A DNA stretch of 64,000 nucleotides, from the sequence record PX423614.1; one strand, given 5' to 3'. This document shows, in pieces, positions 5,429-30,994 of the stretch. The position numbers were made by a program, and so were the translations under genes. Position 1 is the stretch's first letter; every line of letters starts with the position of its first letter. The notes under the pieces were generated by a model, which did not search any database, was not told where the DNA came from, and worked only from the letters and a program-made list of their open reading frames with translations. This stretch comes from a phage.

Positions 5429-7462
5429 ATTTGTGGTATCGTATTAGCTGGCGGCAACATGACCTCAGCAGATTTGGACATTTTCAACCAACTTCTGTAT
5501 GCTGGTGTTTTCCGTGGACAGCACTCAACTGGTGTGTTTGGTCAGCGTAAAGGTGAAAAGCAAGTCTTCTCTTATAAAGAAGCTCTTCCTTCTTATGCTT
5601 TTATGCTCCAGACAGAATATACAAATATTACCAAAGGGCTTACGAACTACGTAGTTCCTCCTTCGTGGATTGTTGGTCACAGCCGACATGCCACTCGTGG
5701 GGCTGTCAATGCTCGAAATGCTCACCCATTTACTCACGGGGATATTACTCTGGTTCATAATGGAACCCTGTTAGATCAAGATCTCCTTCCTGACAGTAAG
5801 CGTTTCGAAGTTGATAGTGAAAACATCTGCCACTCAATTAACACCATTGGAGCAGCAGAGACTATCCAAAAACTGGATGGTGCATTCACTTTGATTTGGC
5901 ATGATGCTAAAGACAACACGCTTCACATTATCCGTAATGATGAGCGTCCTTTCCACCTAGCCCGCTGTGGTTTGGATTGGTTTGGAGCTTCTGAAGAAGC
6001 TATGCTTATGTGGATTTTAGAGCGTTCTAAGTCCCATAAGAACCGTATCAATGACCACTTCGAATGTAAAGTGGGAACTGAGTATATCTTTGATGTGTCT
6101 AACAGTCGTATGACTCTGGTTCAAGAGGTGGAGCACACGCTTCCGGTTTTTACGGTAACGAGTCGCTGGGGCGGCTATTACTCGAACTCCTCTCTTTATC
6201 AGAACCAACAGACAAACAAATCAAGCAGCAGCACAAGCGACATTTACGGAAACAAAGACGACAAGCCCGGCGTGACAAGCGGAGACATTCGTCGTCGTAA
6301 AGCGATTGAAGACCAGAACAAACTGGCTGCCGATCGTGGTCTTCCTTATCGTCGTGATGGTCGTGTGGATATTATTCCTCATGAGTTCCATGCTTATAAC
6401 AACACAGATCGTGGTAAGATGGTTGGTTACATCTACGATGATAAAGCTCAAGAGTATGTCGAAGGGGATGTTCACAACGTAGCCAAAGATGAATATCTTA
6501 AGGCTCTTGAAAACCCAAAGGTAGTATATCGCGGGACGATTGCTTGTATCTCCGAAGTGGACAGTATGATTCGCCTCGTACTAACTTCAGGGCTGTTTGT
6601 TGATGCTACAGATAAGGAGCCTCAAAGCACTACTGCTGATTTTGATGATGATATCCCTTTTGATGCAGAGGACTCCTTCATCACTAAGAATGGTGTAGAA
6701 GTCACTCGTAAGTTCTGGGAATCTCACTCTCATGGTGACTGTGGTGGTTGTGATAAGCACATTGACTGGAAAGATGCTCGTAAGGCTGTGTTTGCTTATC
6801 AGGCATACTGGCATCCAGAATGCTTCGAAGCGTTATCTAAAACCTCTGAAGAGGAAGAAGATGTGCCTTTGGGTGTATGTGCTATCTGTGGTGAAGTCAA
6901 GACTGATTTCGAGTTTGACAACGAAATGAGTAAACTTCGTGGTGAAGACGTTTGTTATATCTGCTCCAAAGAAATCAAAGATAAAGTAAAGAATGTTACT
7001 CTATCTGAAGGTTATATTTGGACTAAAGCAGTAGACACAACCAACCCACGTCGTCCTGAAGTAGCTGTTCGTGTTGATGAACGTATGCTTAGCCGTATGA
7101 TTGTAATGGTCAGCTCAGCAAAACGTTCAGGGGATATTACACTTGCAGATGTTCCTAATTCGTATTTGGAAAAACGTGGTGGTGATACTTATGCCATCTC
7201 TGTTTATGGTCCAAAGAATTCCCCAAAGGAGGTACCCGCTGAGAAAGCGGAGACATTTCCAGAAAAGTCAACCTCTCTCCGAAAAACAGTTGTCAGTTAT
7301 GATGGACAACGAACAGCTGAGTTTACAAAAGCCCTCTGGACTTCAATTGGGTTTTGTGCAGTCTGTTATAAACAAATTCCGTGGCGTGATGCAGAAACTT
7401 GCTCACTGAACAAAGAAAACAGGGTGATCTGTAATTCAGATTACTGTAAAGGTAAACACTAA
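5429..7462 (+). CDS. class II (Ntn) glutamine amidotransferase with C-terminal multi-CxxC zinc-ribbon extension; probable ATT start
   Basis: In-frame CGIV immediately upstream of the ATG at 5459 (TAG-AAA-ATT-TGT-GGT-ATC-GTA); AGGTGG RBS 8 nt before ATT 5429; HSRHATRG...NAHPF...HNGTL motifs typical of PurF/GlmS/AsnB-type GATase; C-terminal CGGC/CAIC/CYIC/CAVC pairs. Confidence 0.7.
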   Translation: MCGIVLAGGNMTSADLDIFNQLLYAGVFRGQHSTGVFGQRKGEKQVFSYKEALPSYAFMLQTEYTNITKGLTNYVVPPSWIVGHSRHATRGAVNARNAHPFTHGDITLVHNGTLLDQDLLPDSKRFEVDSENICHSINTIGAAETIQKLDGAFTLIWHDAKDNTLHIIRNDERPFHLARCGLDWFGASEEAMLMWILERSKSHKNRINDHFECKVGTEYIFDVSNSRMTLVQEVEHTLPVFTVTSRWGGYYSNSSLYQNQQTNKSSSSTSDIYGNKDDKPGVTSGDIRRRKAIEDQNKLAADRGLPYRRDGRVDIIPHEFHAYNNTDRGKMVGYIYDDKAQEYVEGDVHNVAKDEYLKALENPKVVYRGTIACISEVDSMIRLVLTSGLFVDATDKEPQSTTADFDDDIPFDAEDSFITKNGVEVTRKFWESHSHGDCGGCDKHIDWKDARKAVFAYQAYWHPECFEALSKTSEEEEDVPLGVCAICGEVKTDFEFDNEMSKLRGEDVCYICSKEIKDKVKNVTLSEGYIWTKAVDTTNPRRPEVAVRVDERMLSRMIVMVSSAKRSGDITLADVPNSYLEKRGGDTYAISVYGPKNSPKEVPAEKAETFPEKSTSLRKTVVSYDGQRTAEFTKALWTSIGFCAVCYKQIPWRDAETCSLNKENRVICNSDYCKGKH

Positions 7463-7473
7463 GAGGTATAGTT

Positions 7474-7707
7474 ATGGAAGTTCGTAAACTGATGTTGGAT
7501 AACGTGGTAACTACCCGCCGTATTCCGATGACAAGCACAGGATGTGATAACCTCCGAGCAATTCAGAAGTGGATGCAAGAAGGTATTGGGAAGCTGGTTG
7601 ACTCTCCAGTAGAAATCCCTTTTCCAACCGTTATCAATAACGTGTTGGCTGACTATGTTAAAATGAAGGGGATTAAAGTTGAGCCTCATGTCAAGCAAGG
7701 GAGCTAA
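7474..7707 (+). CDS. hypothetical small protein (77 aa)
   Basis: ORF track; RBS-like AAGAGG upstream. Confidence 0.4.
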   Translation: MEVRKLMLDNVVTTRRIPMTSTGCDNLRAIQKWMQEGIGKLVDSPVEIPFPTVINNVLADYVKMKGIKVEPHVKQGS

Positions 7708-7909
7708 GCCTCACCTGACAATGCTGGAGTATCAACAACTCCGACTTCAACAACTGGTAACGGAGCAGCGAAAGCTGTATCCGTTTGCTTTTAACTTAAT
7801 CGACTCTCCAAGCGATGCCCAAGAAGACGAAATGTTCGCTGAGTATTGGGCAATCGAAGCTAAAATTCAATCCTGTCGTAACGAAATTCTTAAACTAAAA
7901 GGTATCTAA
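7679..7909 (+). CDS. hypothetical small protein (76 aa or shorter)
   Basis: ORF track; overlaps previous ORF, true start may be internal. Confidence 0.35.
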   Translation: MSLMSSKGAKPHLTMLEYQQLRLQQLVTEQRKLYPFAFNLIDSPSDAQEDEMFAEYWAIEAKIQSCRNEILKLKGI

Positions 7910-7911
7910 AA

Positions 7912-9147
7912 ATGACTACTCGTATCCGTGTTCTTCCGTATGGCCCGTCTGATTCTGTTAACGCTCTGGTATCTGCTATCAGTGATACTATCCGTGATGA
8001 ACGCATCAATGCTAACGTGATGGGGCTTCTTTCAGAGAATAGCCGCTGGCGTTCTCGTGAAGGTGATGTGGTTGTTAACTACGGGAACCGTCGCTATCCT
8101 GAATCATTCTTTGGTTCTGCAACCGTCCTTAACCGTACCGCAGCCTTATATATGGCAGCGAACAAACGTCGTGCTTTCAGTGTGATGGACCAAGCAGGTG
8201 TTAAAACTGTGGAATACACAGATGTTCAAGAGACTGCTCAGGAGTGGTCAAACACTGGTAATATTGTGTATGAGCGCCATGAGCTGACTGGTCACTCTGG
8301 TTCGGGCATTGTTGTTGTAGAACCGGGTGATTCAATTGGTCAAGCTGAACTGTACACCAAAGGTATTCAAGGCCCACGTCGTGAATGGCGTGTCCATGTG
8401 TTCAAAGGTGTAATCACCTATGTTCAGAAGAAGATTCGTCGCAATGGTTATCGCGAAGACCCTAACTATCGTGAAGATATTCGTAATCACCACACTGGCT
8501 GGGTTTACTCAAGCTCCTTCACAGATGCTCCGAATGACGCCTCTCTGATCAATGCAGTGAAAGCTGTTGAATCAATGGGTCTGGATTTCGGTGCAGTTGA
8601 TATTATCACCAAAGGTCAAGAAGCGTGGGTACTGGAAGTTAATACAGCACCGGGCCTGACTGGTACAACTCTGGATACTTACCGTCATAACATTCTTGAG
8701 TTTGTTAAAGCTCAAAACCCTCTCTATACTCCTCAGTATAAAGTGGTTTACCAGACTCCGATTGAAGATGGAGACGGTGAGTTGGTGGATGATATTGAAA
8801 GTGCTGATGATGAAAACTTTGCACTGGAAGGACAAGTAGCACAGCCGATTGATTCAGTTGATGTGGTTCCTGAAGAAATGCAACTGGAAGGTCAGATGAA
8901 TACTCAAACTATTCGTAATGCACCTACTGGCTACACTTTGTCTCGTGGCTACTGGATTGCAAATATCCGTCATGTCCACAACAACCTGCAACCGAATGCA
9001 ATGTCTGCCAATGTCATCCTGTTCTGTGATGGTCGTAACTTCTACCGCAGTGGTTGGAACGTTCCGGTCAATCCAGTCCAGATTCATAACCCTCGCAAGT
9101 TAGAGTCTGTCAATGTTGAAGGTAGCGAAGTAGCAGTAACTCTGTAA
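7912..9147 (+). CDS. ATP-grasp family ligase (RimK/glutathione-synthetase-like)
   Basis: C-terminal half shows GxDxxxxxG...WVLEVNTAPGL, the characteristic ATP-grasp E-V-N-x-x-PG region, plus basic-loop region RREWRVHVFKG. Confidence 0.6.
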   Translation: MTTRIRVLPYGPSDSVNALVSAISDTIRDERINANVMGLLSENSRWRSREGDVVVNYGNRRYPESFFGSATVLNRTAALYMAANKRRAFSVMDQAGVKTVEYTDVQETAQEWSNTGNIVYERHELTGHSGSGIVVVEPGDSIGQAELYTKGIQGPRREWRVHVFKGVITYVQKKIRRNGYREDPNYREDIRNHHTGWVYSSSFTDAPNDASLINAVKAVESMGLDFGAVDIITKGQEAWVLEVNTAPGLTGTTLDTYRHNILEFVKAQNPLYTPQYKVVYQTPIEDGDGELVDDIESADDENFALEGQVAQPIDSVDVVPEEMQLEGQMNTQTIRNAPTGYTLSRGYWIANIRHVHNNLQPNAMSANVILFCDGRNFYRSGWNVPVNPVQIHNPRKLESVNVEGSEVAVTL

Positions 9148-10940: not shown

Positions 10941-12731
10941 ATGTCAAAGATCATTTTGGGAGACACAGGCTGTAAAGAGTGTATCTCTCATGGTCGTGAT
11001 AAGACCCGCAATCACATGATTCTCTTCCGAAATGAAGAGTCCGGTGAGGAGTGGGGTTCATGTAACAGATGTGGTGCGTATGAAATCTTCGAGAAAGGAA
11101 TGACGCCCACTCCTAATGAAAAGAAAGAGCTGTCCCCTGAAGAACTCCGAGAAGTCTTAGACGATTGCTTAGAGCTTCCTCAGGGAGAGTTGACCCGTCG
11201 CTTAATTCCTAAAGCTGTATCTGAACGCTATGGATGCCGTATTGGTTTAAGTCAAACAGACGGTCAAACTCCTGACAGCTACTTCTTCCCTCGCGAACGT
11301 GATGGGAATATTGTTGGATATGAAGTAAAACTTCTAGACAGCAAGAAATTCTATTATGTAGGTAATGTGAAAGAAGCCGACTTATTTGGTATGGCTCAAG
11401 CACAACGTGGCGATGTTTACAATAAGAAGCTCTTCATCTTTGAAGACCCACTCTCTTGTATGTCTGGATTCCACGTACTTACTGCGTTCACAAACGCAAC
11501 TAATATCAAACCTGCTTGTGTCTCTCTTCCGTTCGGTGCAGGTTCAATCTCTTCTGTGTTGTCAAGAAATCGTGATTTTATTAATGGTTTCGAGGAGATT
11601 GTACTCTGCATGGACAATGATGATGCAGGCGAGATTGCATTGACTAAAGGTCGTTCTCTGTACCCACATGTCAAGTTTGCAAGAATTCCAAAAGGTACGT
11701 TTACTTACAACGGACAGGAAAAGGAAATCAAAGATGCAAACGACATGTTACTGGCAGGGAGAGGTCAAGAGCTTTTCAATAATCTGAAGTATTCAGCTAA
11801 GCGGGAATCTCCTGCTGGAGCTGTTACAGTTTTTGATTGTCTTGAAGACGCTCTGAAGAAAGCGGAATGGGGTATCCCTTATCCGTGGAAAACTCTCAAT
11901 GACATGACCTTTGGTATTCGTTGGGGGGAGATGGTTGCAATCGGCGGTGGTGTTGGTTCAGGTAAAACCTTAATCGCACACGAACTGGTAGCATGGCTTT
12001 GCCTTGAGCATGGTTTTAATGGTGGTGGCTTCTTCTTGGAAGAGAAGGTAGGCATGTCTGTTAAGAACATTGCTGGCAAGTCTGCATCTGTTCCATTTCA
12101 CCGACCGGATGTTGAGTATGAAGAAAGTCAGCTACGAGATGAAGCACTTCGATACGCTGATAAGTTTTTCTTGTACGACAACTTTGGACAGAATGAGTGG
12201 GAAGACATTAAGCAGTGTATTCGCTTTTGGGTAGTTGAGAATCAATGTAAGTTTATCATCCTTGATAACATCACTGCATTGGTATCTCACTTAACTCCAT
12301 CCGAAGTGAATACAGAAATCAGTAAGATTGCTTCAGAGCTTGCTGGTATGTGTAAGGAATTAGACTTCACTGCTTTTGTGTTATCTCACTTGAATGCTCC
12401 GGCGGGCGGTGCCCCTCACGAAGAAGGTGGTCAGGTTAAAGAAGTACAGTTTACTGGCTCACGTTCATTAATGCGCTGGTGTCAATGTATTATCGGTTTC
12501 GAACGTAATAAACAAGCGGATGGGTTAGGTAAAAACTTGTCAATCATACGTCTGCTCAAAGAGCGTAACTATGGACAGACGGGGGTTTGCTATACCAAAT
12601 ATATTAACGAAACAGGTCGTCTTGTAGAACGAGAAGATCATGAAGTTGATGAAGATAATCCGTTTACAGTCACCAACGGAGAAGATGCAGCTTCCTTACT
12701 TTCACAAGAAGGGGAGGCACGTCCGTGGTAA
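10941..12731 (+). CDS. DNA primase/helicase (T7 gp4-like: zinc finger, TOPRIM, SF4 DnaB-like helicase)
   Basis: N-terminal CxxC...CxxC zinc finger; central TOPRIM-like acidic motifs (EDPLS, DND); Walker [10 protein letters not shown]; RBS AAGGAGG upstream. Confidence 0.85.
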
Positions 12732-13273
12732 AGAAACTGTATGCGTTTGATATTGAAGGTGATAACCTCTATGACGGTATTCAGAATGTCTGGTGTATAT
12801 GGATATTTGATGTACTGTCTGGAGAACGGTGGGGGTATCGCCCTCACCAAATTGAAGAAGCACTACACAAACTGAAAGAAGCTGATGTAGTAATAGGTCA
12901 CAATATTATTGATTTTGACCTTCCTGCTTTGTTTAAATTCTACTCTCATGTGATACCTTTTCGTTTTAATGTCTTTGATACCCTGTGCCTGAGTCGATAC
13001 CTCAAGCCTGACCGTATTGGTGACAGTCCAGAATACCCCAAAGGCGACCCTAGACATGGCCCTCGCGGTCATGGCCTCAAGCAATGGGGCGAATTTCTGG
13101 GAGAGCTGAAGGGTGATTATGGCGAACAGGAAGAAGCATGGGATGCATTCACTGAAGACATGTTCACATATTGTGAGCAAGACGTTAACTTGACAGTTAA
13201 GGTTTACATGTGTCTTTGCCAAATGGCAGGATTTGATTATAGAAATCCCCCATCTCTCAACTGGAAAATGTAG
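12725..13273 (+). CDS. family A DNA polymerase 3'-5' exonuclease domain, encoded as a separate gene
   Basis: Exo I FDIEGDNL, Exo [13 protein letters not shown], Exo III YCEQD motifs; 182 aa with its own stop. Confidence 0.7.
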
Positions 13274-13275
13274 AA

Positions 13276-14748
13276 ATGATTAAGATTCCATTGTCTGAAT
13301 TGAACCTTCAAGAAGGAGAAGCCCTCAGTGTAGGGCTTGACCTGATTCGTAATTTGATCAGAGATAACGTAGTCCCTGATGGCATCTATCCTGTTATTGC
13401 AGGTGGTGCTATCCGTGATACGTTCTTCCAAAATAGAACTCCGAATGATGTTGATATCTTCCTAGTTCAAGGAGGGTTTCGTTGGAACACTCGTCAGGAA
13501 AACAGCCCTGCTAACGTAGGTAATGCTGCACTTTTCCTTGACAACTTCTTATCTTGGACAGAAAGTAAGGGGCTTCAGGTTACATCTCGACTAATTCAGC
13601 CTGTTAACGGGACAACCTATGCTGAAGCGCTTTTCACTTTCCAAGAGATTCTGGAAATTGAGATTGATCAAGTTAAAATCCAGATGATGATTAATCTACC
13701 TTTGGATATGGATACTTTAAGCCGTCGCTTCCCTATGATCTGTCAAGGGTTTATGACTCTTGGTAATCTGTATGTGTCAAACGAAGGTTTGTTTGCAATG
13801 TCATACACTCGTGACATTCCTGTGGTATCTAGTCGTGAAATGAAGTACGTTCACAAGAAGTGGCCTGAAGCAACTGTTGCAGTTTATAGCAGTTCTACCG
13901 AATATATGCACCTTGCAATGGGAGCTTTCGGTGAGCCAGAAGTTCACCTGATTAGTGATTTAGTTGGACCTATGGCTGGTGTAAATTTATATCAGAATCA
14001 GCGTCGTCATTATACCCTGAAGATGATGGAAACTATATTAAACATTCCTCAGGAAAGGGGTCGTAGTTATCTGGACGAGGAAGTTAACCTACAGACAGAA
14101 TGGTCTAGTGGATTAACCACTATAGGTGCTGAAGCAATCACGCAGCCTTGGACTCCGGGAACTAACAGACGAGATCTTCAAGCTTTTAATGAAGAAACTT
14201 CTCGAACAGTTCGAGGAGGTGTTGTAGGGTATAACGTACAACCTCATGAAAGACCTCGTGACACTTTCACTGGCAGTTTTGGTAGTGCACGCTCTTCTGG
14301 AGTGGATACTCGTACATGGCATGTCCAAGGAGGAACTGCTCGTCCTATTCCCTCTCCGTCAATGGATGATTTGCAGCGTTCTCGTCGTTCATGGGAAACA
14401 GTAAGCTCTGTTGTTCAGGGTCTACGTGCTAGAGATATTGAACGTGTAGAAGTTGGTGATTTGCCAACCCCTACAGAAGATCGAGTATCAGCTATAGCGG
14501 CTCGTGAAGCTGCTCATATTGGTTTTGCATCATTAACTAATGACGCTAACGAAGCTCCTCGACCTGTTGGTCGTCGTAATGGTCTAGCTCACTCTGACAC
14601 TGCACTTGGTGCAGAACTACGAGCAGCAGCTCGTGAGCTATCTGGTGAGCTTCACAACAACCTAGCAGGTGTTACACTATCTCGTGAAACAGCTCGTAAT
14701 ATGATTAATAATTTGGCATCATCTGTACAAGGAAACAGAAACTCATGA
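13276..14748 (+). CDS. Pol-beta-superfamily nucleotidyltransferase (CCA-adding/poly(A)-polymerase-like head) with disordered R/S/G-rich C-terminus
   Basis: AGGAIRD-x13-DVDIF fits the G[GS]-x9-13-DxD nucleotidyltransferase motif; C-terminal ~200 aa low complexity. Confidence 0.5.
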   Translation: MIKIPLSELNLQEGEALSVGLDLIRNLIRDNVVPDGIYPVIAGGAIRDTFFQNRTPNDVDIFLVQGGFRWNTRQENSPANVGNAALFLDNFLSWTESKGLQVTSRLIQPVNGTTYAEALFTFQEILEIEIDQVKIQMMINLPLDMDTLSRRFPMICQGFMTLGNLYVSNEGLFAMSYTRDIPVVSSREMKYVHKKWPEATVAVYSSSTEYMHLAMGAFGEPEVHLISDLVGPMAGVNLYQNQRRHYTLKMMETILNIPQERGRSYLDEEVNLQTEWSSGLTTIGAEAITQPWTPGTNRRDLQAFNEETSRTVRGGVVGYNVQPHERPRDTFTGSFGSARSSGVDTRTWHVQGGTARPIPSPSMDDLQRSRRSWETVSSVVQGLRARDIERVEVGDLPTPTEDRVSAIAAREAAHIGFASLTNDANEAPRPVGRRNGLAHSDTALGAELRAAARELSGELHNNLAGVTLSRETARNMINNLASSVQGNRNS

Positions 14749-15278
14749 GTCTTTTAGGTTCTCAAGAATTACACAGCGTTATCGATAATGGCTTTTTAGA
14801 TGCGGAGCATAAATATGTTAACGCTGCTAGCGTGGATATCCGTATTGGTGATACTATCCTTGTTGAAGAACAGGCTGATGGTATTGTTGACATTGATGCT
14901 AAAGAAAACCTCAAGTGGAAAGAAGTGAAAATCCCTGAAGATGGCATTGTCATTACTCCGGGACAGTTCTTCTTAGCTCACTCTATGGAAGAATTTAACC
15001 TTCCAGACAATATTTCAAGTCTGTTTGTACTCCGCTCCTCAATGGCTCGTTGTGGTTTAAACCACTTACATGCTGGGTGGGCTGATGCAGGGTTTAACAG
15101 CAGTAAGCTAACCTTTGAGTTCCATAACGTTACCCACAATCACAGCTTACGAGTTCGTGCTGGGATGCGTGTTGGTCAAATGGTTATGTTTGAACACTCT
15201 CACGCTGGTGATGATTCCTATGCAGTGAAGGGTCGTTATAATAACTCTGATGGGGTTGTTGCTTCTAAAGGCGTATAA
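14745..15278 (+). CDS. dcd: dCTP deaminase / dUTPase-family protein
   Basis: SVDIRIGD, LRSSMARCGL, GWADAGFN and GMRVGQMV resemble Dcd motifs (VDVRLG, GRSSLARLGL). Confidence 0.7.
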   Translation: MSLLGSQELHSVIDNGFLDAEHKYVNAASVDIRIGDTILVEEQADGIVDIDAKENLKWKEVKIPEDGIVITPGQFFLAHSMEEFNLPDNISSLFVLRSSMARCGLNHLHAGWADAGFNSSKLTFEFHNVTHNHSLRVRAGMRVGQMVMFEHSHAGDDSYAVKGRYNNSDGVVASKGV

Positions 15279-15281
15279 TTG

Positions 15282-15494
15282 ATGGAGTTTGGAACAATGA
15301 AAAGACGTTGGGTAGTCCGCGTTCACTGGAGCAGTGGTACAGAATCAATGGGTATCAGAAACACTCGTCAAGAAGCTCGCGCTCATAAGAAGTTCTTATT
15401 AAGCTGCGAAAGTACTATTGACAAGATCACTATCCACAAAGCTCAGGACTTTAAATCAGGTCGTTTCTATATCAGCGGAAAGGTACATTACTAA
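15282..15494 (+). CDS. small basic protein, paralogue family A member 1
   Basis: W-x-V-x-V-x-W...TRQEAR...KITIHK...KVHY shared with three other ORFs. Confidence 0.5.
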   Translation: MEFGTMKRRWVVRVHWSSGTESMGIRNTRQEARAHKKFLLSCESTIDKITIHKAQDFKSGRFYISGKVHY

Positions 15495-15700
15495 TGGCTA
15501 AATTATGGGCAGTTCGTGTTAAATGGGCTAACAAAGATCTTGGTGGTGATTGTCTTAAACTGTTTGACACACGACAAGAAGCTCGTCTTGCTAAGAAAGC
15601 TACAAAAGCTTTAGGTCTCGCTGAAAAAGTAGAGATTCATCGTTGGTTTCAAAATGATAATAACAGTGCAGGATCCTTGACTAGCAAGGTTCATTACTAG
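15494..15700 (+). CDS. small basic protein, paralogue family A member 2
   Basis: Same pattern (WAVRVKW...TRQEAR...KVEIHR...KVHY); start overlaps upstream stop (TAATG). Confidence 0.5.
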   Translation: MAKLWAVRVKWANKDLGGDCLKLFDTRQEARLAKKATKALGLAEKVEIHRWFQNDNNSAGSLTSKVHY

Positions 15701-15770
15701 TTGGTAGTAGATATGATAACTCTCAAATGTATATACAGTATAAGAATATTGTATGAAACAGGAGAGAGTT

Positions 15771-16100
15771 ATGTTAGATTTGAGTAAAGTGGCCCCGCCA
15801 TCTGAAGAGATTAGCAAAGCTAAAGTTATGCAGCAGTTCTATCATCGTGATATGCTTGGTCGTTATATCAAGAATCGTGATGTTGTTGCATGGTCTATTG
15901 GAAATCAAGGTTATCTTCTCAAAGTGTTGCAAGTTACTGGCTCAACAGCCAAGCGAGTCAAAGTCTATGACCCTGAAATGGGGCGTTCTAAATCAGTAGA
16001 CCCTCAGAATTGCATTGTTATCACACAACAGGTCATGGATAACATTGCTCGTAATGTAGCTAATTCAACTAACTTAGAAGGGGATGCACCTAATGCATAA
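15771..16100 (+). CDS. hypothetical protein (109 aa)
   Basis: ATG at 15771 with RBS AGGAGAG; within track ORF 15753..16100. Confidence 0.5.
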   Translation: MLDLSKVAPPSEEISKAKVMQQFYHRDMLGRYIKNRDVVAWSIGNQGYLLKVLQVTGSTAKRVKVYDPEMGRSKSVDPQNCIVITQQVMDNIARNVANSTNLEGDAPNA

Positions 16101-16659
16101 TAATGTCTTCGACTTACCTGAACTAACACGAGTGGGTTCTAGCAACCCATTCTCTACTACTGACTCTTCTATCTCTCGTCTTGAGGGAATGAATAAACTG
16201 ATTAGCGGTAACAGCTTAGAACACATCTTGTGTGGTGTGCAAGCTAACCTTGAACTTCTACACATCAAAGCAAAGAACTACCACTGGAACGTCTCTGGAG
16301 CTGGTTTCCAAGGTGTTCATGGTATGTTCGATGAGTTAGAAGATTATGCTCGTGAGGCAGGCGACCGAATAGCAGAGCGTATGCGCTTTCACTGTGTTAA
16401 AGTGGATGCTACTGCTAGTAACTATTTAGGTCATGCTTGGTTCCGAGAAGGTAACGCTGATCTCGACATGGACGGTATGCTTTCCGACATGTGCATGACT
16501 CTGATGTGTATCATTGAAAAGATGGACGAGTTTGATTCAGACTTGTGCACTTATCCAGTTGACCAGAGTATGCTTCAAGAAATTAATGAAGGTCTTGGCA
16601 AGTTCTGCTACTTCGTCAAGAGCAACATGTCCCACTCCAGTGGTGACGTGTCTTACTAA
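16093..16659 (+). CDS. Dps-like ferritin-fold protein
   Basis: NLELLHIKAKNYHWNVSGAGFQGVHGMFDELEDYAREAGDRIAERM matches the Dps signature H-x-YHWNV-G-x-F-x-x-H...FEE...D-x-x-AERI. Confidence 0.6.
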   Translation: MHNNVFDLPELTRVGSSNPFSTTDSSISRLEGMNKLISGNSLEHILCGVQANLELLHIKAKNYHWNVSGAGFQGVHGMFDELEDYAREAGDRIAERMRFHCVKVDATASNYLGHAWFREGNADLDMDGMLSDMCMTLMCIIEKMDEFDSDLCTYPVDQSMLQEINEGLGKFCYFVKSNMSHSSGDVSY

Positions 16660-16722
16660 TCAAACCTCCGCCCTGTCTCTTTGTTTAAGAGGTGGGGCGA
16701 ACTTCTTTATAAGGATATGAGT

Positions 16723-16902
16723 ATGTTTTCAGCAATCGTATGGTCTGTATGGGCAATTCTTGTTGGTGGTATCGTTTATCTGGCTCAGAAGCAGATGCTT
16801 AAAGAGAATCCGAATGATGCTAAACCTATTAAACATGGCAGCATTGCTCTGGTAATTTTCTCTGTTGTTATTCCTTTCCTTCTCCACCTGTTGACTGCAT
16901 AA
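16723..16902 (+). CDS. small two-TM membrane protein (paralogue B1)
   Basis: ATG 16723 with AAGGA RBS; two hydrophobic segments flanking KENPNDAKPIKHG. Confidence 0.5.
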   Translation: MFSAIVWSVWAILVGGIVYLAQKQMLKENPNDAKPIKHGSIALVIFSVVIPFLLHLLTA

Positions 16903-16911
16903 GGGTTTGAT

Positions 16912-17100
16912 ATGATTTCACTGATTGTGTGGGCCGTGTGGTCGTTAATAGTTGGTACTGTTATATATATATAAAGCTCGAAATTTAGCAATTAAAGAAA
17001 ACCCAGCAGAAGAGGATGTTAAAGCTATCAAGCTAGGTAGTGTTGTTCTGGTACATTTTGCTATAACACTACCTCTTGTTATTATTCTTTGTATGCTATA
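16912..17100 (+). pseudogene. interrupted paralogue of the 16723 membrane protein; reading frame broken at a (TA)6 tract
   Basis: MISLIVWAVWSLIVGTVIYI then TAA inside TATATATATATA (16962-16973); downstream +1-shifted frame encodes KARNLAIKENPAEEDVKAIKLGSVVLVHFAITLPLVIILCML, homologous to the upstream gene. Confidence 0.45.
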
Positions 17101-17291
17101 AGGAATCCAAAGAGTGAAACTAAACCTACCTGAAGAATTACAAGCACATGCCATTATCGTTAGTGGCTGTGTGATGGGTCTTGGTCAGACAAAGAAGATT
17201 GCTCATGACTTAGCAAAAGGTCAGTATAAATCTTTTATTGTTGTTCCTGCTACCCAGCGTCATATCAACCTGTTTATTAACAAGGAATAGA

Positions 17292-17567
17292 ATGAGTAAA
17301 GTAATTAAGTTTTATAGTAATTCATGTGCTCCGTGTGCAGCTATGGCTCCTGTGTTTAAGAAGGTTGTGGCTGACTATAGTGTAGAAGTTGAAGAAGTAA
17401 ATATCTCTGAAGGTGATGGTCGAGAGCGAGCCGTTGAATATGGTGTTCGCAGTATCCCAGCCTTTGTCGTCCCTGATAAGAACAGTGGTGCTCATTATAG
17501 TTTATCAGGTATGCAAACTGAATCTAATCTCCGTGCATTTTTAGACACGGCTCTGAAAGGTATTTAA
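17292..17567 (+). CDS. thioredoxin-like protein
   Basis: CAPC active-site motif in thioredoxin context (KFYSNSCAPCAAMAPVF...IPAFVV); RBS AAGGAA upstream. Confidence 0.7.
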   Translation: MSKVIKFYSNSCAPCAAMAPVFKKVVADYSVEVEEVNISEGDGRERAVEYGVRSIPAFVVPDKNSGAHYSLSGMQTESNLRAFLDTALKGI

Positions 17568-17568
17568 T

Positions 17569-17784
17569 ATGGAAAAGAAACCTTGGATTACTTTTTGGGT
17601 AGTTAAGTGGTTTAATTTTGATAGCACAATCCCTAGCCTCTCCTCGTACACAACACGGAGAGAGGCTCGCCGCTTTAAGCGAGCTTTAAAAATTGCTAAC
17701 ACTGGTGCTTCTAAGATCACAATCCAGAAAGGGATTGAAACAGAAAGTGGAAGCAATCTGATTTATAAAAAGATTTACTATTAA
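17569..17784 (+). CDS. small basic protein, paralogue family A member 3
   Basis: WVVKW...TRREARRFKRALK...KITIQK...KIYY. Confidence 0.5.
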   Translation: MEKKPWITFWVVKWFNFDSTIPSLSSYTTRREARRFKRALKIANTGASKITIQKGIETESGSNLIYKKIYY

Positions 17785-17799
17785 AGAATAGGTGCTATT

Positions 17800-18012
17800 A
17801 TGACTCAAGGAAAAGATGTGTATTTTTGGGCTGTTGTTTCTGAATATCCAGAGATGGAGTATCCAAGGGTTAACACGTGTGCTACTCGTAAAACTGCACG
17901 ATGCACTAAACGTGCCCTCAAGAAGATGGGTCGTGATTCGAAGATTTCAATCCACCGTGCATATATGACAGCAGCGGGTTTCATTGTAGTAACACCAAAA
18001 GTTTATTATTAA
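17800..18012 (+). CDS. small basic protein, paralogue family A member 4
   Basis: FWAVV...TRKTARCTKRALK...KISIHR...KVYY. Confidence 0.5.
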   Translation: MTQGKDVYFWAVVSEYPEMEYPRVNTCATRKTARCTKRALKKMGRDSKISIHRAYMTAAGFIVVTPKVYY

Positions 18013-18026
18013 GGAAGAGTTCAAGG

Positions 18027-18677
18027 ATGAATGAACAATTACAAGCAACACTAATTGAAGCAATGGGAAATGACAAAACCGTTGTTAACGCAGCTCGGGT
18101 TTCTTTTGGAGTCACTCGTGAAGGAGAGTTAAATGAACGTGATGAACGCCTTATCAAATTCCTTGCCAGAGAAAAACACTGTACACCATTCCGTCATCCG
18201 ACAATTAGCTTCCGATGCAAAGCGCCAATCGCAATTGCGAGGCAGCTGGGCAAGCATCAAGTTGGATTCTCGTGGAACGAAATGTCCCGGCGGTATAAAG
18301 ATGGAGCAGTTGAACTCTTCATCCCTAAAGAGATTTTTGAAAGACCTTCGGACCTCCATGCAGGTGCGGGGAATCTCCTCACCACAGGAGCACAAAACTC
18401 TGCACTAGTCCTGATTAATCGGGCATATGAAACAGCTCTTGAGTCATATGATGAGTTGATTAAGTTCATCGCTCCAGAGCAAGCTCGATTCGTACTACCT
18501 CAGGGAATGATCACTGAGTGGGTGTGGACAGGCTCTTTATATGGTTGGTCAGAGTTGTGTCGTCAGCGACTGTCCGACCATGCTCAGTATGAAGTACGAG
18601 TGTTCGCATCAACGGTCGATGAAGAGCTTCGTAAACTTTTCCCAATCTCATGGGACGCACTACGTGAAGCCCACTAA
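18027..18677 (+). CDS. thyX: ThyX-like flavin-dependent thymidylate synthase family protein with variant signature
   Basis: HCTPFRHPTISF and KHQ-x8-S...RRY resemble the ThyX H-x-S-P-F-EH and RHR-x7-8-S motifs, but RHR is replaced by KHQ. Confidence 0.5.
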   Translation: MNEQLQATLIEAMGNDKTVVNAARVSFGVTREGELNERDERLIKFLAREKHCTPFRHPTISFRCKAPIAIARQLGKHQVGFSWNEMSRRYKDGAVELFIPKEIFERPSDLHAGAGNLLTTGAQNSALVLINRAYETALESYDELIKFIAPEQARFVLPQGMITEWVWTGSLYGWSELCRQRLSDHAQYEVRVFASTVDEELRKLFPISWDALREAH

Positions 18678-18849
18678 AGTGTGTAGCTTCTGTCAAAAGC
18701 AGAAGCTTCTTATCAATTTCAAGCTGAACGAGGAAACAGGTTTGGGTCATGCTTTTTGTCATGATTGCAGGTACTACCTTGAACAGAAGCAACACATAAA
18801 CTGGTTGCATTACTACAAACCTAACACCTACAAGCACAAGGTTATCTAA
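18664..18849 (+). CDS. small Cys-rich (zinc-ribbon-like) protein, possible GTG start
   Basis: In-frame GTG at 18664 after the ThyX-like stop; CSFCQK...CHDC pairs. Confidence 0.25.
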   Translation: MKPTKVCSFCQKQKLLINFKLNEETGLGHAFCHDCRYYLEQKQHINWLHYYKPNTYKHKVI

Positions 18850-19646: not shown

Positions 19647-19824
19647 AATGTTTTAAATGTGAATCAACTCTTCTCCATTTGGACTCGAAAGTAATACGGG
19701 AGCTTGCCAAAGGCTCCCCGACTAAAGGGAAGAATAAGAAGTTTGTCGAAATTAAGGTTATAGGTATCCATTGCTCAGAGTGTAAATCCTGTAGCTTCTT
19801 ATATGAAGAACACGGAGGTAGGAA

Positions 19825-20562: not shown

Positions 20563-20609
20563 ACATAATGTATACTCCTTAGTGTACACTGATATGTTAA
20601 GGAGTTGTG

Positions 20610-20924: not shown

Positions 20925-20928
20925 TATA

Positions 20929-20960: not shown

Positions 20961-20980
20961 TAGAACCTAAGGTAATAAAT

Positions 20981-21861: not shown

Positions 21862-23556
21862 GTGATGGATAACCCTGATAAGTTACCTTTCATAACGGAG
21901 ATGACAGTCGCTGATATAATCTCAAAACAGGCGAAGCATGGAGTCAACTTCAACAGAAGAAACGCTCGGTGGTTTGTTCACCTTCTCAAAGAGATTATTG
22001 TCAATATTGATAAAGAACTGATTCCTCTCCTCCCCAAAATGCGGGTGGATGGTTCAACTTATTCCAAACCTTTTAAGAAGTCCGGTGCTTTACAGAAGTG
22101 GCCTCAACTCTATTGTGATAGGGTTGGTCTTAAAAGAGAAGATATCGGTGGGGCGTTTACTTGCGTTGAGTATGTAGACTTTGACCCATCAAAAGATGCA
22201 CGTATCAAAGAAGCCTTGATGGATGAAGGTTTTATACCTCCAGAGTGGAATTATTCTAAGAAACCTTGGAATACTTTTGAAATTCGTAAAGCTATGAAGA
22301 AGTATGGTACATACTCTGCATGGTATTCTGCTTGGATTCGAGGTAACGCTAAAGAGAAACAGACAGCAGAGATGATAGATGCTGATATCCGAAGGTTTTT
22401 GGATAAACACTTCCGTTATCATACTGTCAATTATATGAAAGCCTATGTCAGCGGTTTAGGTCTTAACCCTAACAGGAAGAAGCCTGTAACCTTTGATGAA
22501 ATCAAAAAAGTTTTGGCTACATCAAACAAGTGGCCTACAGCCCCTACAAACCTTGAGGAGACTCTTGAAGAGGGGCTTGGGGGTGAGCTAGGGGGTGTAG
22601 GAAGTTTGCTTAAGAGACGCGTTGTAGCGGCTCACAGGCTAGGTTTGATTAGCGGGCTTATCGACAAGGAACGTAAAGATGGTAAGTTGTCCGCCGAAGC
22701 TAATAGCTGCGCTACTCCGACATTTCGTTTTAAACATCGCATTGTTGTTAATATTCCTTCTCGCGGTTTGTTTGGTCACGAGTGCCGCAGTCTTTTTCAA
22801 TCTGACTATTCCTCAGACGATAGTCATAACCATCCTTTCATCATTACCAACCATATCCCTGATGGGTGTTACGTACGAAAGGGTACTAACATTATCTATG
22901 AAATGGGAAAACCGGGCAAGAAAGACAAACCAATAGGTGCTTATAAATTTTATGTACCTGCTGGTCGTGAAGTCTTCTTAGGTTATGATGGCTCTGGTCT
23001 TGAGCTGAGGATGCTCGCTCACTACCTTATCAAAGAGTGTCGTGAGATGCTCGCTGAAGCAGAGCGGGAAAACAACCCAGCTAAGAAACGGGAAGCTGAA
23101 CGCGGTCTAGCTTCTGCTGTTATGTACAGAGATATTCTTTTAGAAGGAGATATTCACTCACATAACCAAAAACTTGCTGGCCTTCCTACTCGTGATAATG
23201 CTAAAACATTTATCTACGCATTCAACTACGGAGCTGGTGACGCTAAGTTAGGAAGCATCGTAGGTGGTGGCTCTGACGAAGGGGCTATCATGAGAGCAAG
23301 ATTCTTAGCAGAGAATCCTTGTATTGCAATCCTTATTGAACGTATGACAGAGAAAGCACAAAGTGGATATATCTACGGTGTGGATGGACGTCGTATTACA
23401 ATGAGAAGAGATGCAACTGGAAAGGTTATGGTCCATAAAGCCTTAAATACGCTCCTACAGAGCGCTGGGGCGATTGTTATGAAGTATGCAATGCTATTCC
23501 TCAATAAATGGATTGAGCGTGATGGTGTTCGTTGTGCGAAGGTTATCGACATGCAT
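21862..23556 (+). CDS. family A DNA polymerase, polymerase domain, exon 1 (ends within motif C)
   Basis: Motif A YDGSGLELR, motif B RDNAKTFIYAFNYGAG; track ORF continues to a stop at 23577, but reading stops being polymerase-like after ...AKVIDMH. Confidence 0.65.
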
Positions 23557-24164
23557 AAACTTTCATTGTGCATGTAAAAGTTGGTGAACTCGGTGAAACC
23601 CTACCATTAAGTTGGGGGCAATACCGAGCTAAGCTATTAGGAGATGATATGGCTAAGAAAACTCTTGTTTTGGAAACAACCGAAACAGGGTGTATCATCC
23701 CTATCTCACACAAACTTAACAAAGATGGTTATTTCAGAAAAGTAATAGATGGCAAATGGGTCATGTATCATAGATATGTTTGGGAAGAATCTTTTGGTTC
23801 TATTCCTGATGGTTATGAAATAAATCACAAATGCAAGAATAGGGCTTGTTCCAATCTTGAGCACTTAGAAATGATTGAAGGTTCAGAACATGCAATAGAA
23901 TCAAACACTGGAAGAAATGGAGATAGACAAGAAGCTGCAAGGCTTTATTGGCTAGAAACAGAATGCTCTGGTGTACATCTTGCAGAGAAGTTTGGTGTGA
24001 GCTTCGGAATCGGTTGTAGATGGATTCGGAAGTGGAAAGTGTAGAGACTATCCTAAGGGAGTAGGGGGTTAACAGGGAAACCCTCGAAGCGCCAACAACA
24101 GCAAATTAGCTATGCTGTTATGATATAGTCCGATACCCGAAGTAATTTGGGAATAACATAAATG
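23557..24164 (+). mobile_element. putative group I intron carrying an HNH homing endonuclease ORF, inserted at polymerase motif C
   Basis: Upstream exon ends with T (cat), insert ends with G, downstream codons GAT GAA restore ...VIDMH|DEGQF (HDE motif C); an HNH ORF lies inside. Confidence 0.5.
23649..24044 (+). CDS. HNH homing endonuclease
   Basis: RBS AGGAG before ATG 23649; YEINHKCKNRACSNLEHLE HNH motif. Confidence 0.65.
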   Translation: MAKKTLVLETTETGCIIPISHKLNKDGYFRKVIDGKWVMYHRYVWEESFGSIPDGYEINHKCKNRACSNLEHLEMIEGSEHAIESNTGRNGDRQEAARLYWLETECSGVHLAEKFGVSFGIGCRWIRKWKV

Positions 24165-24317
24165 GATGAAGGCCAGTTCACTGTACATCGTGATGATGTT
24201 AATATTCTGCGCACTCTCACTGAAGAGTGTGTCCGTAAAGCAGGGGAATACCTCAAGATGGAATGTCCTCTTGCATCAGATTGTAAGATTGGGCTTAACT
24301 GGAATCATACTCACTAA
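24165..24317 (+). CDS. DNA polymerase C-terminal exon (motif C to C-terminus)
   Basis: DEGQFTVHRDD...CPLASDCKIGLNWNHTH resembles the T7 DNA polymerase C-terminus (...LDTEGKMGPNWAICH) as recalled from memory; 51 codons, below the ORF track cutoff. Confidence 0.55.
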   Translation, partial: DEGQFTVHRDDVNILRTLTEECVRKAGEYLKMECPLASDCKIGLNWNHTH

Positions 24318-29584: not shown

Positions 29585-30180
29585 TGAGTAAACCATTAGT
29601 AGTAATTCTGAATGGACCACCGGGTTGTGGTAAAGATACAATCGCTAATTCTTGGTTAGAGAAAACACTTGGTAACACCGAGTTTAGGCCGCATGTAAAG
29701 GCTTTTAAGGAGCCTATGTATCGAGTGGCTGCTGCTGCATTAGGTCTACCTCTTTATGAGTTCATGGAGCTGTACAACGACCGTGAGTGGAAAGAACATA
29801 GCCGTCCTGAATGGGACGGTAAGTCAGTTCGAGACTTGATGATTGCAACTAGTGAGAACTATCTGAAGCCCATGTTTGGTGAGACCTGCATGGGTAAACT
29901 TGCTGTTAGCAGTATTCAACAACGCACCCCAACACAGAATGATGTTATTGTATTCTCTGACGGTGGGTTTAAAGCAGAAGTTGAAGAACTGGAAAAACAT
30001 TTCCATGTTCGAGTAGTTCAGATTCTCCGAGATGGATGCTCCTTTGAAGGGGACTCCCGTTCTTATATCGAAGGAATAAACCTACCAACCTACCTCCTCT
30101 TTAATGACCGTTCTGTAGAAGAGGCAGTGGAGGATTTGGAGTGGATTATTGAGGGGACACGGAGAGGTCTCTATGTCTGA
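29584..30180 (+). CDS. P-loop nucleotide/nucleoside kinase (dNMP kinase-like)
   Basis: Walker A ILNGPPGCGKDT near N-terminus; size and position like phage dNMP kinases. Confidence 0.6.
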   Translation: MSKPLVVILNGPPGCGKDTIANSWLEKTLGNTEFRPHVKAFKEPMYRVAAAALGLPLYEFMELYNDREWKEHSRPEWDGKSVRDLMIATSENYLKPMFGETCMGKLAVSSIQQRTPTQNDVIVFSDGGFKAEVEELEKHFHVRVVQILRDGCSFEGDSRSYIEGINLPTYLLFNDRSVEEAVEDLEWIIEGTRRGLYV

Positions 30181-30994
30181 TGTAGTCTATCCTGAAGTAG
30201 CAATTGTGGATGCAGATGTTCTACGGTATGAAGTTGGTGCTCTTACACAAGAGCATCCATTCCTAGATACAGGTCGTGTTCCGGTTGATTATGGATTCTT
30301 AATTGAACGTCTCCAACACAAAATTGATGTAATCATTGCAAGGTCAGGTTGTGAGAAAATAATCTTTTACTTCAGTGAAGGTGGTAATTTTCGGTTTGAT
30401 ATTGCTAAGCAGCAAGGTTATAAAGCTAATCGACCACCGGGAGAAAGACCTCACCACTGGCAAAATGTTAGTGACTACATTAAAGAGAATTACGAATACG
30501 TAGAAGTTTTTGGGAGAGAGGCAGATGATGCCTTAGCTGAAAGACAGAGACGTGATAAGAACACTATCATTTGCACCCGTGATAAAGACTTGTTAATCAC
30601 TCCCGGATGGCATTACCGTTGGGCTTGCGGGGAGAGACAGAAAGAGGTACCTCCTCATTATGTATCAGAGGAAGTAGCATGGCAGAACTTCTTCTACCAG
30701 ATGCTGATCGGGGATAGCACAGATAATATTCCCGGATGTGGTGAGAAGGTTGAAATGATGTGGGGTGGCAATCTAGTAATGCGTCGTAAAGGCATTGGTA
30801 GTAAGGCTGCAATCAAACTTATTGAGAAGGTATTCGATAAGTGGACTCTTTATCATATTATACGAATGGAATACTATAAAAGGTTCGAGGAAGAAGCAGA
30901 AGATAAGATGTTAGAAAACGCTCGATTGCTCTTCGTTGGACAAGCTGAAGGTGACCTCTTTGATTGGTCATGGTTAGATAAAACTTGGGAATAA
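30173..30994 (+). CDS. 5'-3' exonuclease / flap endonuclease (T7 gp6-like)
   Basis: ATG 30173 overlapping upstream stop; acidic clusters and YKANR motif typical of FEN-type 5' nucleases. Confidence 0.65.
   Translation: MSDVVYPEVAIVDADVLRYEVGALTQEHPFLDTGRVPVDYGFLIERLQHKIDVIIARSGCEKIIFYFSEGGNFRFDIAKQQGYKANRPPGERPHHWQNVSDYIKENYEYVEVFGREADDALAERQRRDKNTIICTRDKDLLITPGWHYRWACGERQKEVPPHYVSEEVAWQNFFYQMLIGDSTDNIPGCGEKVEMMWGGNLVMRRKGIGSKAAIKLIEKVFDKWTLYHIIRMEYYKRFEEEAEDKMLENARLLFVGQAEGDLFDWSWLDKTWE

Follow-up and report, generated by a model that had tools for sequence, protein, structure and literature searches.

A phiEco32-like phage encodes the exonuclease and polymerase parts of its T7-type family A DNA polymerase in two separate genes

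In the textbook view, a family A DNA polymerase carries its polymerase and proofreading activities on one chain. All Kuravirus-like phages and their relatives have been described as sharing a separation of the exonuclease (exo) and polymerase (pol) domains (Viruses 2023, PMC9965538), which was also reported for the LUZ24 group and phiEco32 (PLoS One 2012, PMC3517423, which cites Savalia 2008). The T7-like PolA of S-SBP1 is also split, and an AlphaFold2 (AF2) model of its exo-pol complex superposes on unsplit PolA (Czernecki et al., NAR 2023, PMC10201439). A second kind of interruption is found in PhiI and W31, where gene 5 carries self-splicing introns (Bonocora & Shub 2004, as cited in PMC3428280). 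The literature that we found under the name "DNA polymerase exonuclease subunit" consists of genome announcements, with no biochemistry found among them.

The window analysed here, a 64,000-nt stretch of phage DNA (sequence record PX423614.1), comes from a phiEco32-like (Gordonclarkvirinae) E. coli phage with ~93–96% nucleotide identity to ECBP2, Bas87 and EK010, whose public records already name the same gene (here at 12725) "DNA polymerase exonuclease subunit". The split is thus already known, being both annotated and published for this phage group, and the window adds no new biology to it. The exo subunits of Kuravirus-like phages (YF01 gp70, ECBP2 YP_006908923, Bas87_0070) are the gene found here, unchanged in position and in length (182 aa), with proteins 72–99.5% identical. 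We found no substantive difference from these phages; an intron in motif C, present here, occurs in only some members of the group.

In the window, one gene encodes the exo domain and another the pol domain of a T7-type family A polymerase (Table 1). The original prediction had placed the exonuclease motifs in a 182-aa ORF with its own stop and motifs A, B and C in ORFs from 21862 onward, some 8.6 kb away. Each of these statements holds: the exo ORF, in which Exo I, II and III align to T7 gp5, opens with GTG and ends with a TAG at 13271–13273; motifs A (GYDGSGLELR), B (RDNAKTFIYAFNYGAG) and C (MH/DE, the slash marking the intron) lie downstream; and 8589 nt separate the end of the exo gene from the opening of the polymerase ORF (13273 to 21862). 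The interval was said to hold about 15 genes, which is an undercount, as ~21–22 ORFs are found there; the corresponding intervals of ECBP2 and Bas87 contain 21 and 24 annotated CDS.

Table 1. Replication genes and intron features discussed in the text, with their positions in the window.
Feature	Coordinates	Strand	Evidence
T7 gp4-like primase/helicase	10941..12731	+	Pfam DnaB_C and Toprim_2
Stand-alone DEDDy 3'-5' exonuclease (predicted), "DNA polymerase exonuclease subunit", 182 aa	12725..13273	+	Motifs, profiles, predicted fold
Phage-encoded thioredoxin, CAPC active site, sited between exo and pol	17292..17567	+	Pfam Thioredoxin E 1e-12; PHROG 22
DNA polymerase exon 1 (thumb, fingers, most of palm; motifs A, B, His of motif C)	21865..23556	+	Pfam DNA_pol_A; T7 gp5 alignment
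Putative group I intron, 608 nt, between His and Asp of motif C	23557..24164	+	Splice-site pairings, covariation, homology
Intron-encoded HNH homing endonuclease, 131 aa from ATG 23650	23650..24044	+	Pfam HNH_3 E 3e-12; PHROG 6254 E 4e-43
DNA polymerase exon 2 (Asp-Glu of motif C and C-terminal 50 aa)	24165..24317	+	PHROG-17 profile
5'-3' exonuclease (FEN-like), own gene	30149..30994	+	PHROG 107 "exonuclease" E 8e-63; start codon uncertain

The 182-aa protein is predicted, from its motifs and modelled fold, to be a complete stand-alone DEDDy 3'-5' exonuclease. Alignment to T7 gp5 pairs D9 and E11 of Exo I (DxE; D9-I-E11) with D5 and E7, N60 and D65 of Exo II (Nx3[F/Y]D; N60-IIDF-D65) with N60 and D65, and Y149 and D153 of Exo III (Yx3D; Y149-CEQ-D153) with Y170 and D174. 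None of the six residues varies among 36 stand-alone homologs, whose identity reaches as low as 35%, and these close homologs are 163–208 aa long, one fragment excepted. Profile matches, well above chance level, agree with the motifs (PHROG 38876, E 3e-67; PHROG 403 "DNA polymerase exonuclease subunit", E 3e-37), and Pfam PF01612 (DNA_pol_A_exo1) matches residues 7–164 with 24.2 bits, a small margin above the gathering threshold of 23.6.

Is this protein a member of an unrelated DnaQ-like family? Among solved structures, T7 gp5 is the closest in both sequence and predicted fold. A phmmer search of the PDB returned T7 gp5 as the sole match (residues 4–142, E 4e-8). The AF2 model (pLDDT 91.8) has an RNase H-like exonuclease fold, and its best 27 Foldseek matches in the PDB are all T7 gp5 (E ~1e-9, query TM-score 0.61–0.76), followed by the exo domains of other polymerases at E 3e-5 or worse. 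Pfam RNase_T gave no match to the exo protein at E ≤0.01. DnaQ or RNase T identity is ruled out by this missing match, by PDB sequence matches restricted to T7 gp5 and by fold matches to polymerase exo domains.

The polymerase ORF opens with a GTG at 21862, the related records starting at the ATG at 21865. T7 gp5 is the best PDB match of its product both in sequence (E 1e-29) and in fold (E 1e-25, AF2 model with pLDDT 90.1). The catalytic residues D375 (A), R443, K447 and Y451 (B) and H564, D565 and E566 (C; P0037 numbering) are invariant among 56 pol homologs, and the Tyr of motif B is of T7 type, at the position of T7 Y526, as in the T7-like family A polymerases (cluster #5 of Czernecki et al.). 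Its alignment to T7 gp5 begins near residue 200, and several lines of evidence show that it has no exonuclease domain of its own; of the two outcomes named in the original prediction as refuting it, a complete exo domain in pol and an unrelated DnaQ-like family for the 182-aa protein, neither was obtained. Profile-profile comparison of the exo and pol families with hhalign gave a probability of 0.1%, no Pfam exo family was found in pol residues 1–360, and the alignment of these N-terminal 360 aa contains no Exo II motif; a hidden or degenerate exo domain in this region is thereby ruled out. The best 120 pol homologs, 370–618 aa long, all lack an exo domain. Compared with T7, pol has large insertions in its thumb and palm regions (residues ~154–253 and ~318–373), and these account for its extra N-terminal length.

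Placed end to end, exo and pol are collinear with T7 gp5 in the alignment, residues 1–~200 of which match exo and ~200–704 match pol, with the same catalytic residues in Exo I–III and in motifs A, B and C. As the original prediction had proposed, the domain boundary can be mapped on T7 gp5: the break falls at about residues 200–208, after the conserved FD..NPP linker motif (T7 YFPPE). On the PHROG-17 profile, the exo protein occupies positions 670–826, exon 1 of pol 837–1185 and exon 2 1186–1233, so that the pol match starts only at 837. T7 gp5 (PDB 1T7P and others) is nevertheless a single polypeptide, whereas two genes are found here, together with the pol insertions, a shortened putative thioredoxin-binding region and a thioredoxin of the phage's own. 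Pol residues 54–135 align to T7 283–362 with a deletion of ~20 aa in the thioredoxin-binding region. The phage thioredoxin may be a candidate processivity factor, a hypothesis also put forward for phage Privateer (PMC7881722).

A third activity of Pol I type, a FEN-like 5'-3' exonuclease, is likewise encoded by a separate gene, for which Pfam 5_3_exonuc_N gave 29.2 bits, under its cut-off; the separate 5'-3' exonuclease of phage YF01 is gp27 (PMC9965538).

The exo gene follows the primase/helicase gene directly. The stop codon of the latter and the exo start overlap in GTGGTAA, the two genes sharing 7 nt, and a Shine-Dalgarno-like GGGGAGG lies 7 nt 5' of the exo start. Because of this overlap, translation of exo is probably coupled to that of the primase/helicase gene and not to that of pol. 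The order primase/helicase, exo, pol, 5'-3' exonuclease is kept in ECBP2, Bas87, Pseudomonas phage NV1 and Aeromonas phage LAh_8; exo directly follows primase/helicase in the first three, and one small ORF intervenes in LAh_8. The distance from exo to pol ranges from 2 to 9.6 kb across phages. Homologs of exo with at least 60% identity occur in 98 phage records and homologs of pol in 99, and the contigs that carry several of the exo and pol homologs agree in length. An artefact or pseudogene, that is, a frameshifted fused gene, is ruled out by the 8.6-kb gap and by conservation in ~98 phage records and metagenomic homologs. Between exo and pol, the + strand contains two strong terminator-like hairpins (16669–16699 and 20928–20952); with the 8.6-kb separation, they suggest that the two genes may be expressed independently. 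A promoter and terminator scan found sites no commoner than in shuffled sequence. Genes of nucleotide metabolism (dCTP deaminase, ThyX and a nucleotidyltransferase) are also found near exo.

Among relatives outside the Kuravirus-like phages, the LUZ24-group Pseudomonas phages (tf, PaP3, LUZ24, NV1) are similar in having a "DNA polymerase part I" or exonuclease subunit directly after primase/helicase and an exo-less T7-type pol that follows several genes downstream. Their pol is 39–41% identical over its full length, and that of LUZ24 also has an intron. They differ in the shorter distance between exo and pol (~2 kb in NV1) and in an exo that is just ~32–39% identical. In S-SBP1-like cyanophages, as here, a T7-like PolA is divided where its two domains meet, giving an exo gene and a pol gene (PMC10201439). 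However, that split is recent, arose by frameshift and left the genes adjacent and overlapping, while the one described here is old, spans several genera and has 8.6 kb between its halves.

The pol gene itself is interrupted inside motif C. From its splice-site pairings, covariation and homology, the insert, between the codons for His and Asp, is identified as a group I intron that is mobile and encodes an HNH homing endonuclease. P1 consists of CAUGCAU/GUGCAUG, its U.G pair lying at the 5' splice site; P10 is an 8-bp pairing with exon 2 (CUUUCAUU/GAUGAAGG), and the intron ends in ...AAAUG, with a terminal G. Five homologous introns show covariation of the P9 stem and of the P1 and P10 guides, and in 13a, Sekstaphage-1, Vp_R1 and PE006 the guides change together with the exons. 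Rfam Intron_gpI (RF00028) matches 24045–24152 with 26.7 bits (E 1.8e-4), below the gathering score of 50; the match covers the 3' core only, including the conserved GAUAUAGUC, as the 395-nt ORF interrupts the model. Because this score is sub-threshold, membership in the group rests on the pairings, the covariation and the homology. The HNH ORF opens mechanically at 23568, but the PHROG 6254 match begins at residue 28 of this long ORF, and ECBP2 annotates the same gene as a 396-nt CDS. The intron is ~66% identical in nucleotide sequence to the gene-5 introns of T7-like phages (13a, Sekstaphage-1 and Yersinia phages), which lie at the same His/Asp site. The gene-5 group I intron of PhiI and W31 (I-TslI type) likewise occupies Pol I site 881 and carries an HNH ORF in a loop. 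Unlike in the T7-like phages, the host of the intron is here an exo-less pol of Kuravirus type, and the P1 and P10 guides are adapted to a different exon. Bas87 and P0037 lack the intron, and their pol is uninterrupted; splicing in silico yields a 614-aa polymerase that is identical to that of P0037 at 609 of 614 positions, without gaps. The two polymerase ORFs are most likely exons joined at the RNA level, and an intein is ruled out by in-frame stops (TAA at 23575).

How would the two genes give one polymerase? The reading that we favour, and consider probable with good confidence, is that the 182-aa protein is the proofreading exonuclease of the T7-type polymerase, that an ancestral gene was split in the exo/pol linker and that exo acts in trans on pol. 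An ancestral family A polymerase gene would have been split in the linker between its exonuclease and polymerase domains, leaving exo directly 3' of primase/helicase and pol 8.6 kb further on. The exo protein would then dock non-covalently on pol, where the exo domain sits in T7 gp5, and the docked protein would excise misincorporated 3' nucleotides in trans. We infer the physical association of exo and pol, proofreading in trans and splicing in vivo. Such a scheme would be comparable to that of epsilon (DnaQ) with the alpha subunit of E. coli Pol III, where a DEDD proofreader is likewise on a separate polypeptide; this is an analogy only, since Pol III belongs to family C and not A, and the exo protein here is not DnaQ/RNase_T-like by Pfam.

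Alternatively, the 182-aa protein could be an autonomous 3'-5' exonuclease, active in recombination or repair, in degradation of host DNA for nucleotide salvage or in a function tied to the primase/helicase, in which case pol would replicate without proofreading. The distance from pol, the overlap with the primase/helicase stop codon, the terminator-like hairpins and the nucleotide-metabolism neighbours are all in keeping with such an enzyme. Yet exo co-occurs strictly with an exo-less pol of T7 type, it resembles the exo domain of T7 gp5 and not the stand-alone DnaQ or RNase T enzymes, the break is placed exactly at the inter-domain linker with contiguous profile coordinates, and AF2 predicts that the complex is preserved in the analogous split of S-SBP1. 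We therefore regard an autonomous exonuclease as unlikely. It is very improbable that the protein is catalytically dead and retained solely as a structural partner that stabilises pol: Czernecki et al. note that PolAs depend on the exo domain to be stable, also where this domain is inactive (NAR 2023, PMC10201439), but here the protein has the full set of six DEDDy catalytic residues, with no variation across the 36 homologs. A different possibility concerns where the proofreader binds. Kuravirus-like phages and those of the LUZ24 type keep the overlap of exo with primase/helicase, and in Lahexavirus the two genes lie almost side by side; as this overlap is conserved while the distance to pol varies, exo could dock on the helicase-primase ring. 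It would be stoichiometric with the ring, instead of or besides pol, and would act as an exchangeable proofreader shared by the replisome, an arrangement that we consider quite doubtful.

The original prediction had also held that, with the insert, the polymerase is in three pieces. This would apply if the insert were a homing endonuclease gene standing on its own, by which pol is broken for good, giving three polypeptides: exo, a 571-aa N-terminal and a 51-aa C-terminal pol. Mechanical ORF calling does yield ORFs of 571 aa (stop at 23575–23577) and 51 aa (ATG at 24162), and pol is entered as two "DNA polymerase" CDS in several public records. However, the ends of the insert are exact group I splice sites, its P1/P10 guides and P9 stem co-vary across the five introns, its GAUAUAGUC core matches the Rfam model, and a free-standing gene is disfavoured by these pairings and their covariation. 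The homologous introns at the same site in T7-like gene 5, where that of 13a is annotated as a joined CDS, and the self-splicing PhiI and W31 introns (cited in PMC3428280) also argue against three polypeptides. Moreover, the apparent ATG of the 51-aa ORF (24162–24164) consists of the final three bases of the intron, and three polypeptides would part the His from the Asp-Glu of catalytic motif C. This outcome is thus highly unlikely. Given the splice sites, the covariation, the intron-less alleles and the near-identity of the spliced product to the P0037 polymerase, the third piece is not supported while the division into an exo gene and a pol gene stands, and we expect two pieces of the polymerase at the protein level.

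For the annotation of this phage group, the analysis means that, wherever the intron is present, as in ECBP2, the paired "DNA polymerase" CDS should be treated as exons and joined. If the proofreader were docked on the helicase and shared, this would be an architecture undescribed for family A polymerases. More generally, natural splits of this kind indicate that exo and pol domains can work as separable subunits, which bears on the control of fidelity and on polymerase engineering.

The 3'-5' exonuclease of this phage is encoded apart from its T7-type family A polymerase. The exonuclease gene is preceded by a Shine-Dalgarno-like sequence (GGGGAGG, 7 nt upstream of the start), and its start overlaps the stop of a 596-aa primase/helicase gene (GTGGTAA). 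Pfam DNA_pol_A_exo1 recognized the protein at 24.2 bits, barely over the 23.6 cut-off, and it matched two PHROG families, both called "DNA polymerase exonuclease subunit", with E values of 3e-67 and 3e-37. T7 gp5 was its sole phmmer match among all PDB sequences (residues 4–142, E 4e-8), and BLASTP aligned residues 9–157 to gp5 5–178 (E 4e-15). In alignment, Exo I (D9/E11), Exo II (N60/D65) and Exo III (Y149/D153) correspond to T7 D5/E7, N60/D65 and Y170/D174. When an AlphaFold2 model built on the homolog alignment (mean pLDDT 91.8) was compared with the PDB by Foldseek, the best 27 matches were all T7 gp5 (E about 1e-9), other polymerase exonuclease domains trailing by four orders of magnitude. 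By sequence and by fold, the closest relative of solved structure is T7 gp5 and not an unrelated DnaQ-like family. The original prediction of a separate exonuclease ORF with Exo I–III motifs and its own stop was thus confirmed, the sole correction being that about 21–22 ORFs, not about 15 genes, separate it from the polymerase.

For just this group of phages, the split has already been described and annotated. Between 12000 and 25000, the window is 93–96% identical in nucleotide sequence to phiEco32-like E. coli podophages (Gordonclarkvirinae: ECBP2, Bas87, EK010, IME267, SU7 and others; 99 matching records), and RefSeq ECBP2 (YP_006908923) and Bas87 name the protein "DNA polymerase exonuclease subunit". 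For the separation in phiEco32, PMC3517423 points to Savalia 2008; the same separation is described for the LUZ24 group (PLoS One 2012, PMC3517423), and YF01 polymerase has [quoted passage not shown] (Viruses 2023, PMC9965538). S-SBP1-like cyanophages carry an independent, recent and adjacent split (NAR 2023, PMC10201439), in which AlphaFold2 predicted the complex to be preserved (PMC10201439).

Features of the exonuclease–polymerase region and its surroundings
Feature	Position	Strand	Remarks
Glutamine amidotransferase and ATP-grasp/RimK-like cluster	5459-9147 and upstream	+	upstream of primase/helicase
Exonuclease	12725-13273	+	GTG start, own TAG stop, 182 aa
Nucleotidyltransferase, 490 aa	13276-14748	+	PHROG 12715, E 2e-165; no Pfam match
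Four paralogous ORFs, ~70 aa	15279-15494, 15494-15700, 17569-17784, 17800-18012	+	PHROG 4939
Terminator-like hairpins	16669-16699, 20928-20952	+	13-bp and 10-bp stems, then T-runs
Thioredoxin	17292-17567	+	phage-encoded, between exonuclease and polymerase; unusual CAPC active site
Two adjacent paralogs	20945-21232, 21222-21491	+	just 5' of polymerase; PHROG 6814
Polymerase insertions relative to T7 gp5	22324-22623, 22816-22983		residues about 154-253 and about 318-373
Insert in motif C	23557-24164	+	608 nt
HNH_3 endonuclease ORF within insert	23650-24044	+	HNH_3 family match
5'-3' exonuclease	30149-30994		separately encoded

The plus-strand half of the window constitutes a replication and nucleotide-metabolism module. 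The nucleotidyltransferase gene follows the exonuclease directly (2-nt spacer, start 3 nt past the stop). Two strong hairpins lie between exonuclease and polymerase, so the two genes may sit in different transcription units; terminator-like sites in total are no more numerous than in shuffled sequence. Scattered through the same interval, the PHROG 4939 paralogs share W.V...TR(Q/R/K)(E/T)AR..K(K/R)...K(I/V).I(H/Q)(K/R) and end in the motif K(V/I)(H/Y)Y near the C-terminus; the PHROG 6814 pair shares TARTNV..RG.DGKF.S.RD...NLKPFP. At the amidotransferase cluster, related phages also have an annotated amidoligase and gamma-glutamyl cyclotransferase. Because the cluster is common to LUZ24-like Pseudomonas phage NV1, this early module is conserved between both phage groups.

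Does the polymerase retain an exonuclease domain of its own? Pfam DNA_pol_A matched only residues 362–565 of the 571-aa ORF opening at 21862, a Pfam scan of polymerase residues 1–360 found no exonuclease family, and profile–profile comparison of the exonuclease and polymerase families gave no match (probability 0.1%). On the PHROG-17 DNA polymerase profile (1445 positions), the exonuclease (670–826), the 571-aa ORF (837–1185) and the 51-aa ORF beyond the insert (1186–1233) are contiguous pieces. T7 gp5 is collinear with exonuclease and polymerase joined end to end, and mapping the domain boundaries placed the break near gp5 residues 200–208, just after an FD..NPP motif (YFPPE in T7) conserved at the C-terminus of all stand-alone exonuclease proteins. 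A full-length AlphaFold2 model of the polymerase built on P0037, a metagenomic homolog identical at 609/614 positions to the window polymerase spliced in silico, again best matched T7 gp5 (pLDDT 90.1). Neither finding named beforehand as refuting the original prediction, a complete exonuclease domain inside the polymerase ORF or alignment of the 182-aa protein to an unrelated DnaQ-like family, was thus obtained. Both large insertions relative to gp5 were confidently modelled, and the first has a weak, sub-threshold match to Pfam DUF3201. The T7 thioredoxin-binding region aligns with the polymerase thumb, which carries a deletion of ~20 aa; the Privateer paper hypothesizes that phage thioredoxin is the processivity factor (PMC7881722).

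The insert splits His from Asp of catalytic motif C, which reads ...VIDMHDEGQF... in the uninterrupted 614-aa polymerases of Bas87 and P0037. Hallmarks of a group I intron are present: its last base is G, its P10 (CUUUCAUU/GAUGAAGG) spans 8 bp, and its 7-bp P1 (CAUGCAU/GUGCAUG) closes with the U.G pair that marks the 5' splice site. Rfam Intron_gpI matched its 3' core, which contains GAUAUAGUC, at 26.7 bits (E 1.8e-4), which falls short of the gathering score (50) since the model is broken up by the ORF. T7-like phages (13a, Sekstaphage-1, Yersinia WX1/2 and K1F) and Vp_R1 have inserts in gene 5 that are about 66% identical to it in nucleotide sequence over 83–98% of its length and occupy precisely this H|D site; the 13a annotation joins the parts of gene 5 into one CDS. 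PMC3428280 cites the PhiI/W31 introns (I-TslI), which are self-splicing and lie at Pol I site 881. Across five homologous introns, P1 and P10 guides vary in step with the exons, and the P9 stem varies (CCCGAA/UUUGGG, CUCCUA/UAGGAG, CACAGA/UCUGUG) while its GUAA loop stays the same. The intron is present in only about 12 of about 99 related phage records, as a mobile element is expected to be. The occurrence of homologous introns here, in T7-like Autographiviridae and in Vibrio phage Vp_R1 looks like homing across phage families, the guides of each copy being fitted anew to its host exon. The final three bases of the intron supply the ATG of the 51-aa ORF, and in ECBP2 and similar public records each exon is listed as a "DNA polymerase" CDS of its own. 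Several close polymerase homologs (P0047, P0051-P0053) are cut short near motif B, at about 450 aa, and the SU7 record lists three "DNA polymerase" CDS; this hints that relatives have another insertion site for an intron or homing endonuclease, absent from the window.

How would the enzyme work? In the best-supported reading, which we regard as probable, the exonuclease is an active proofreading subunit. It would bind the polymerase non-covalently, in the position of the gp5 exonuclease domain, and act in trans to edit the primer terminus, and the polymerase itself would be translated from spliced mRNA. We found no biochemical study of this trans arrangement in our literature search. An inactive scaffold is very improbable; D9, E11, N60, D65, Y149 and D153 are invariant among 36 homologs, down to 35% identity, and the protein is catalytically competent at the sequence level. 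Equally improbable is a polymerase truly in three pieces. The original prediction counted the insert as creating a third piece; its two separate genes stand, and the third piece gives way to a group I intron, its hallmarks and same-site homologs making the enzyme most likely two proteins, not three. An exonuclease acting autonomously is less remote and still unlikely; exonuclease homologs (>=60% identity) occur in 98 phage records and polymerase homologs in 99. We therefore rank trans-proofreading by a docked subunit over all three.

All 36 close exonuclease homologs are stand-alone proteins (163–208 aa), and the best 120 polymerase homologs, including those of Vp_R1, Aeromonas APT65 and LUZ24-like Pseudomonas phages (annotated "DNA polymerase part II"), are all exonuclease-less. 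An exhaustive exonuclease search of 1.8 billion representative proteins likewise gave stand-alone closest matches; among the best 150, 38 were 130–260 aa long and 82 exceeded 540 aa with an N-terminal match, i.e., fused T7-type enzymes. The order primase/helicase, exonuclease, polymerase, 5'-3' exonuclease also holds for Pseudomonas phage NV1 (3'-5' exonuclease gene overlapping the helicase gene, polymerase 2 kb downstream) and Aeromonas phage LAh_8 (polymerase 9.6 kb downstream). Thus, as judged from stand-alone homologs, co-occurrence and gene order, the fission of exonuclease and polymerase is old and common to several phage genera.
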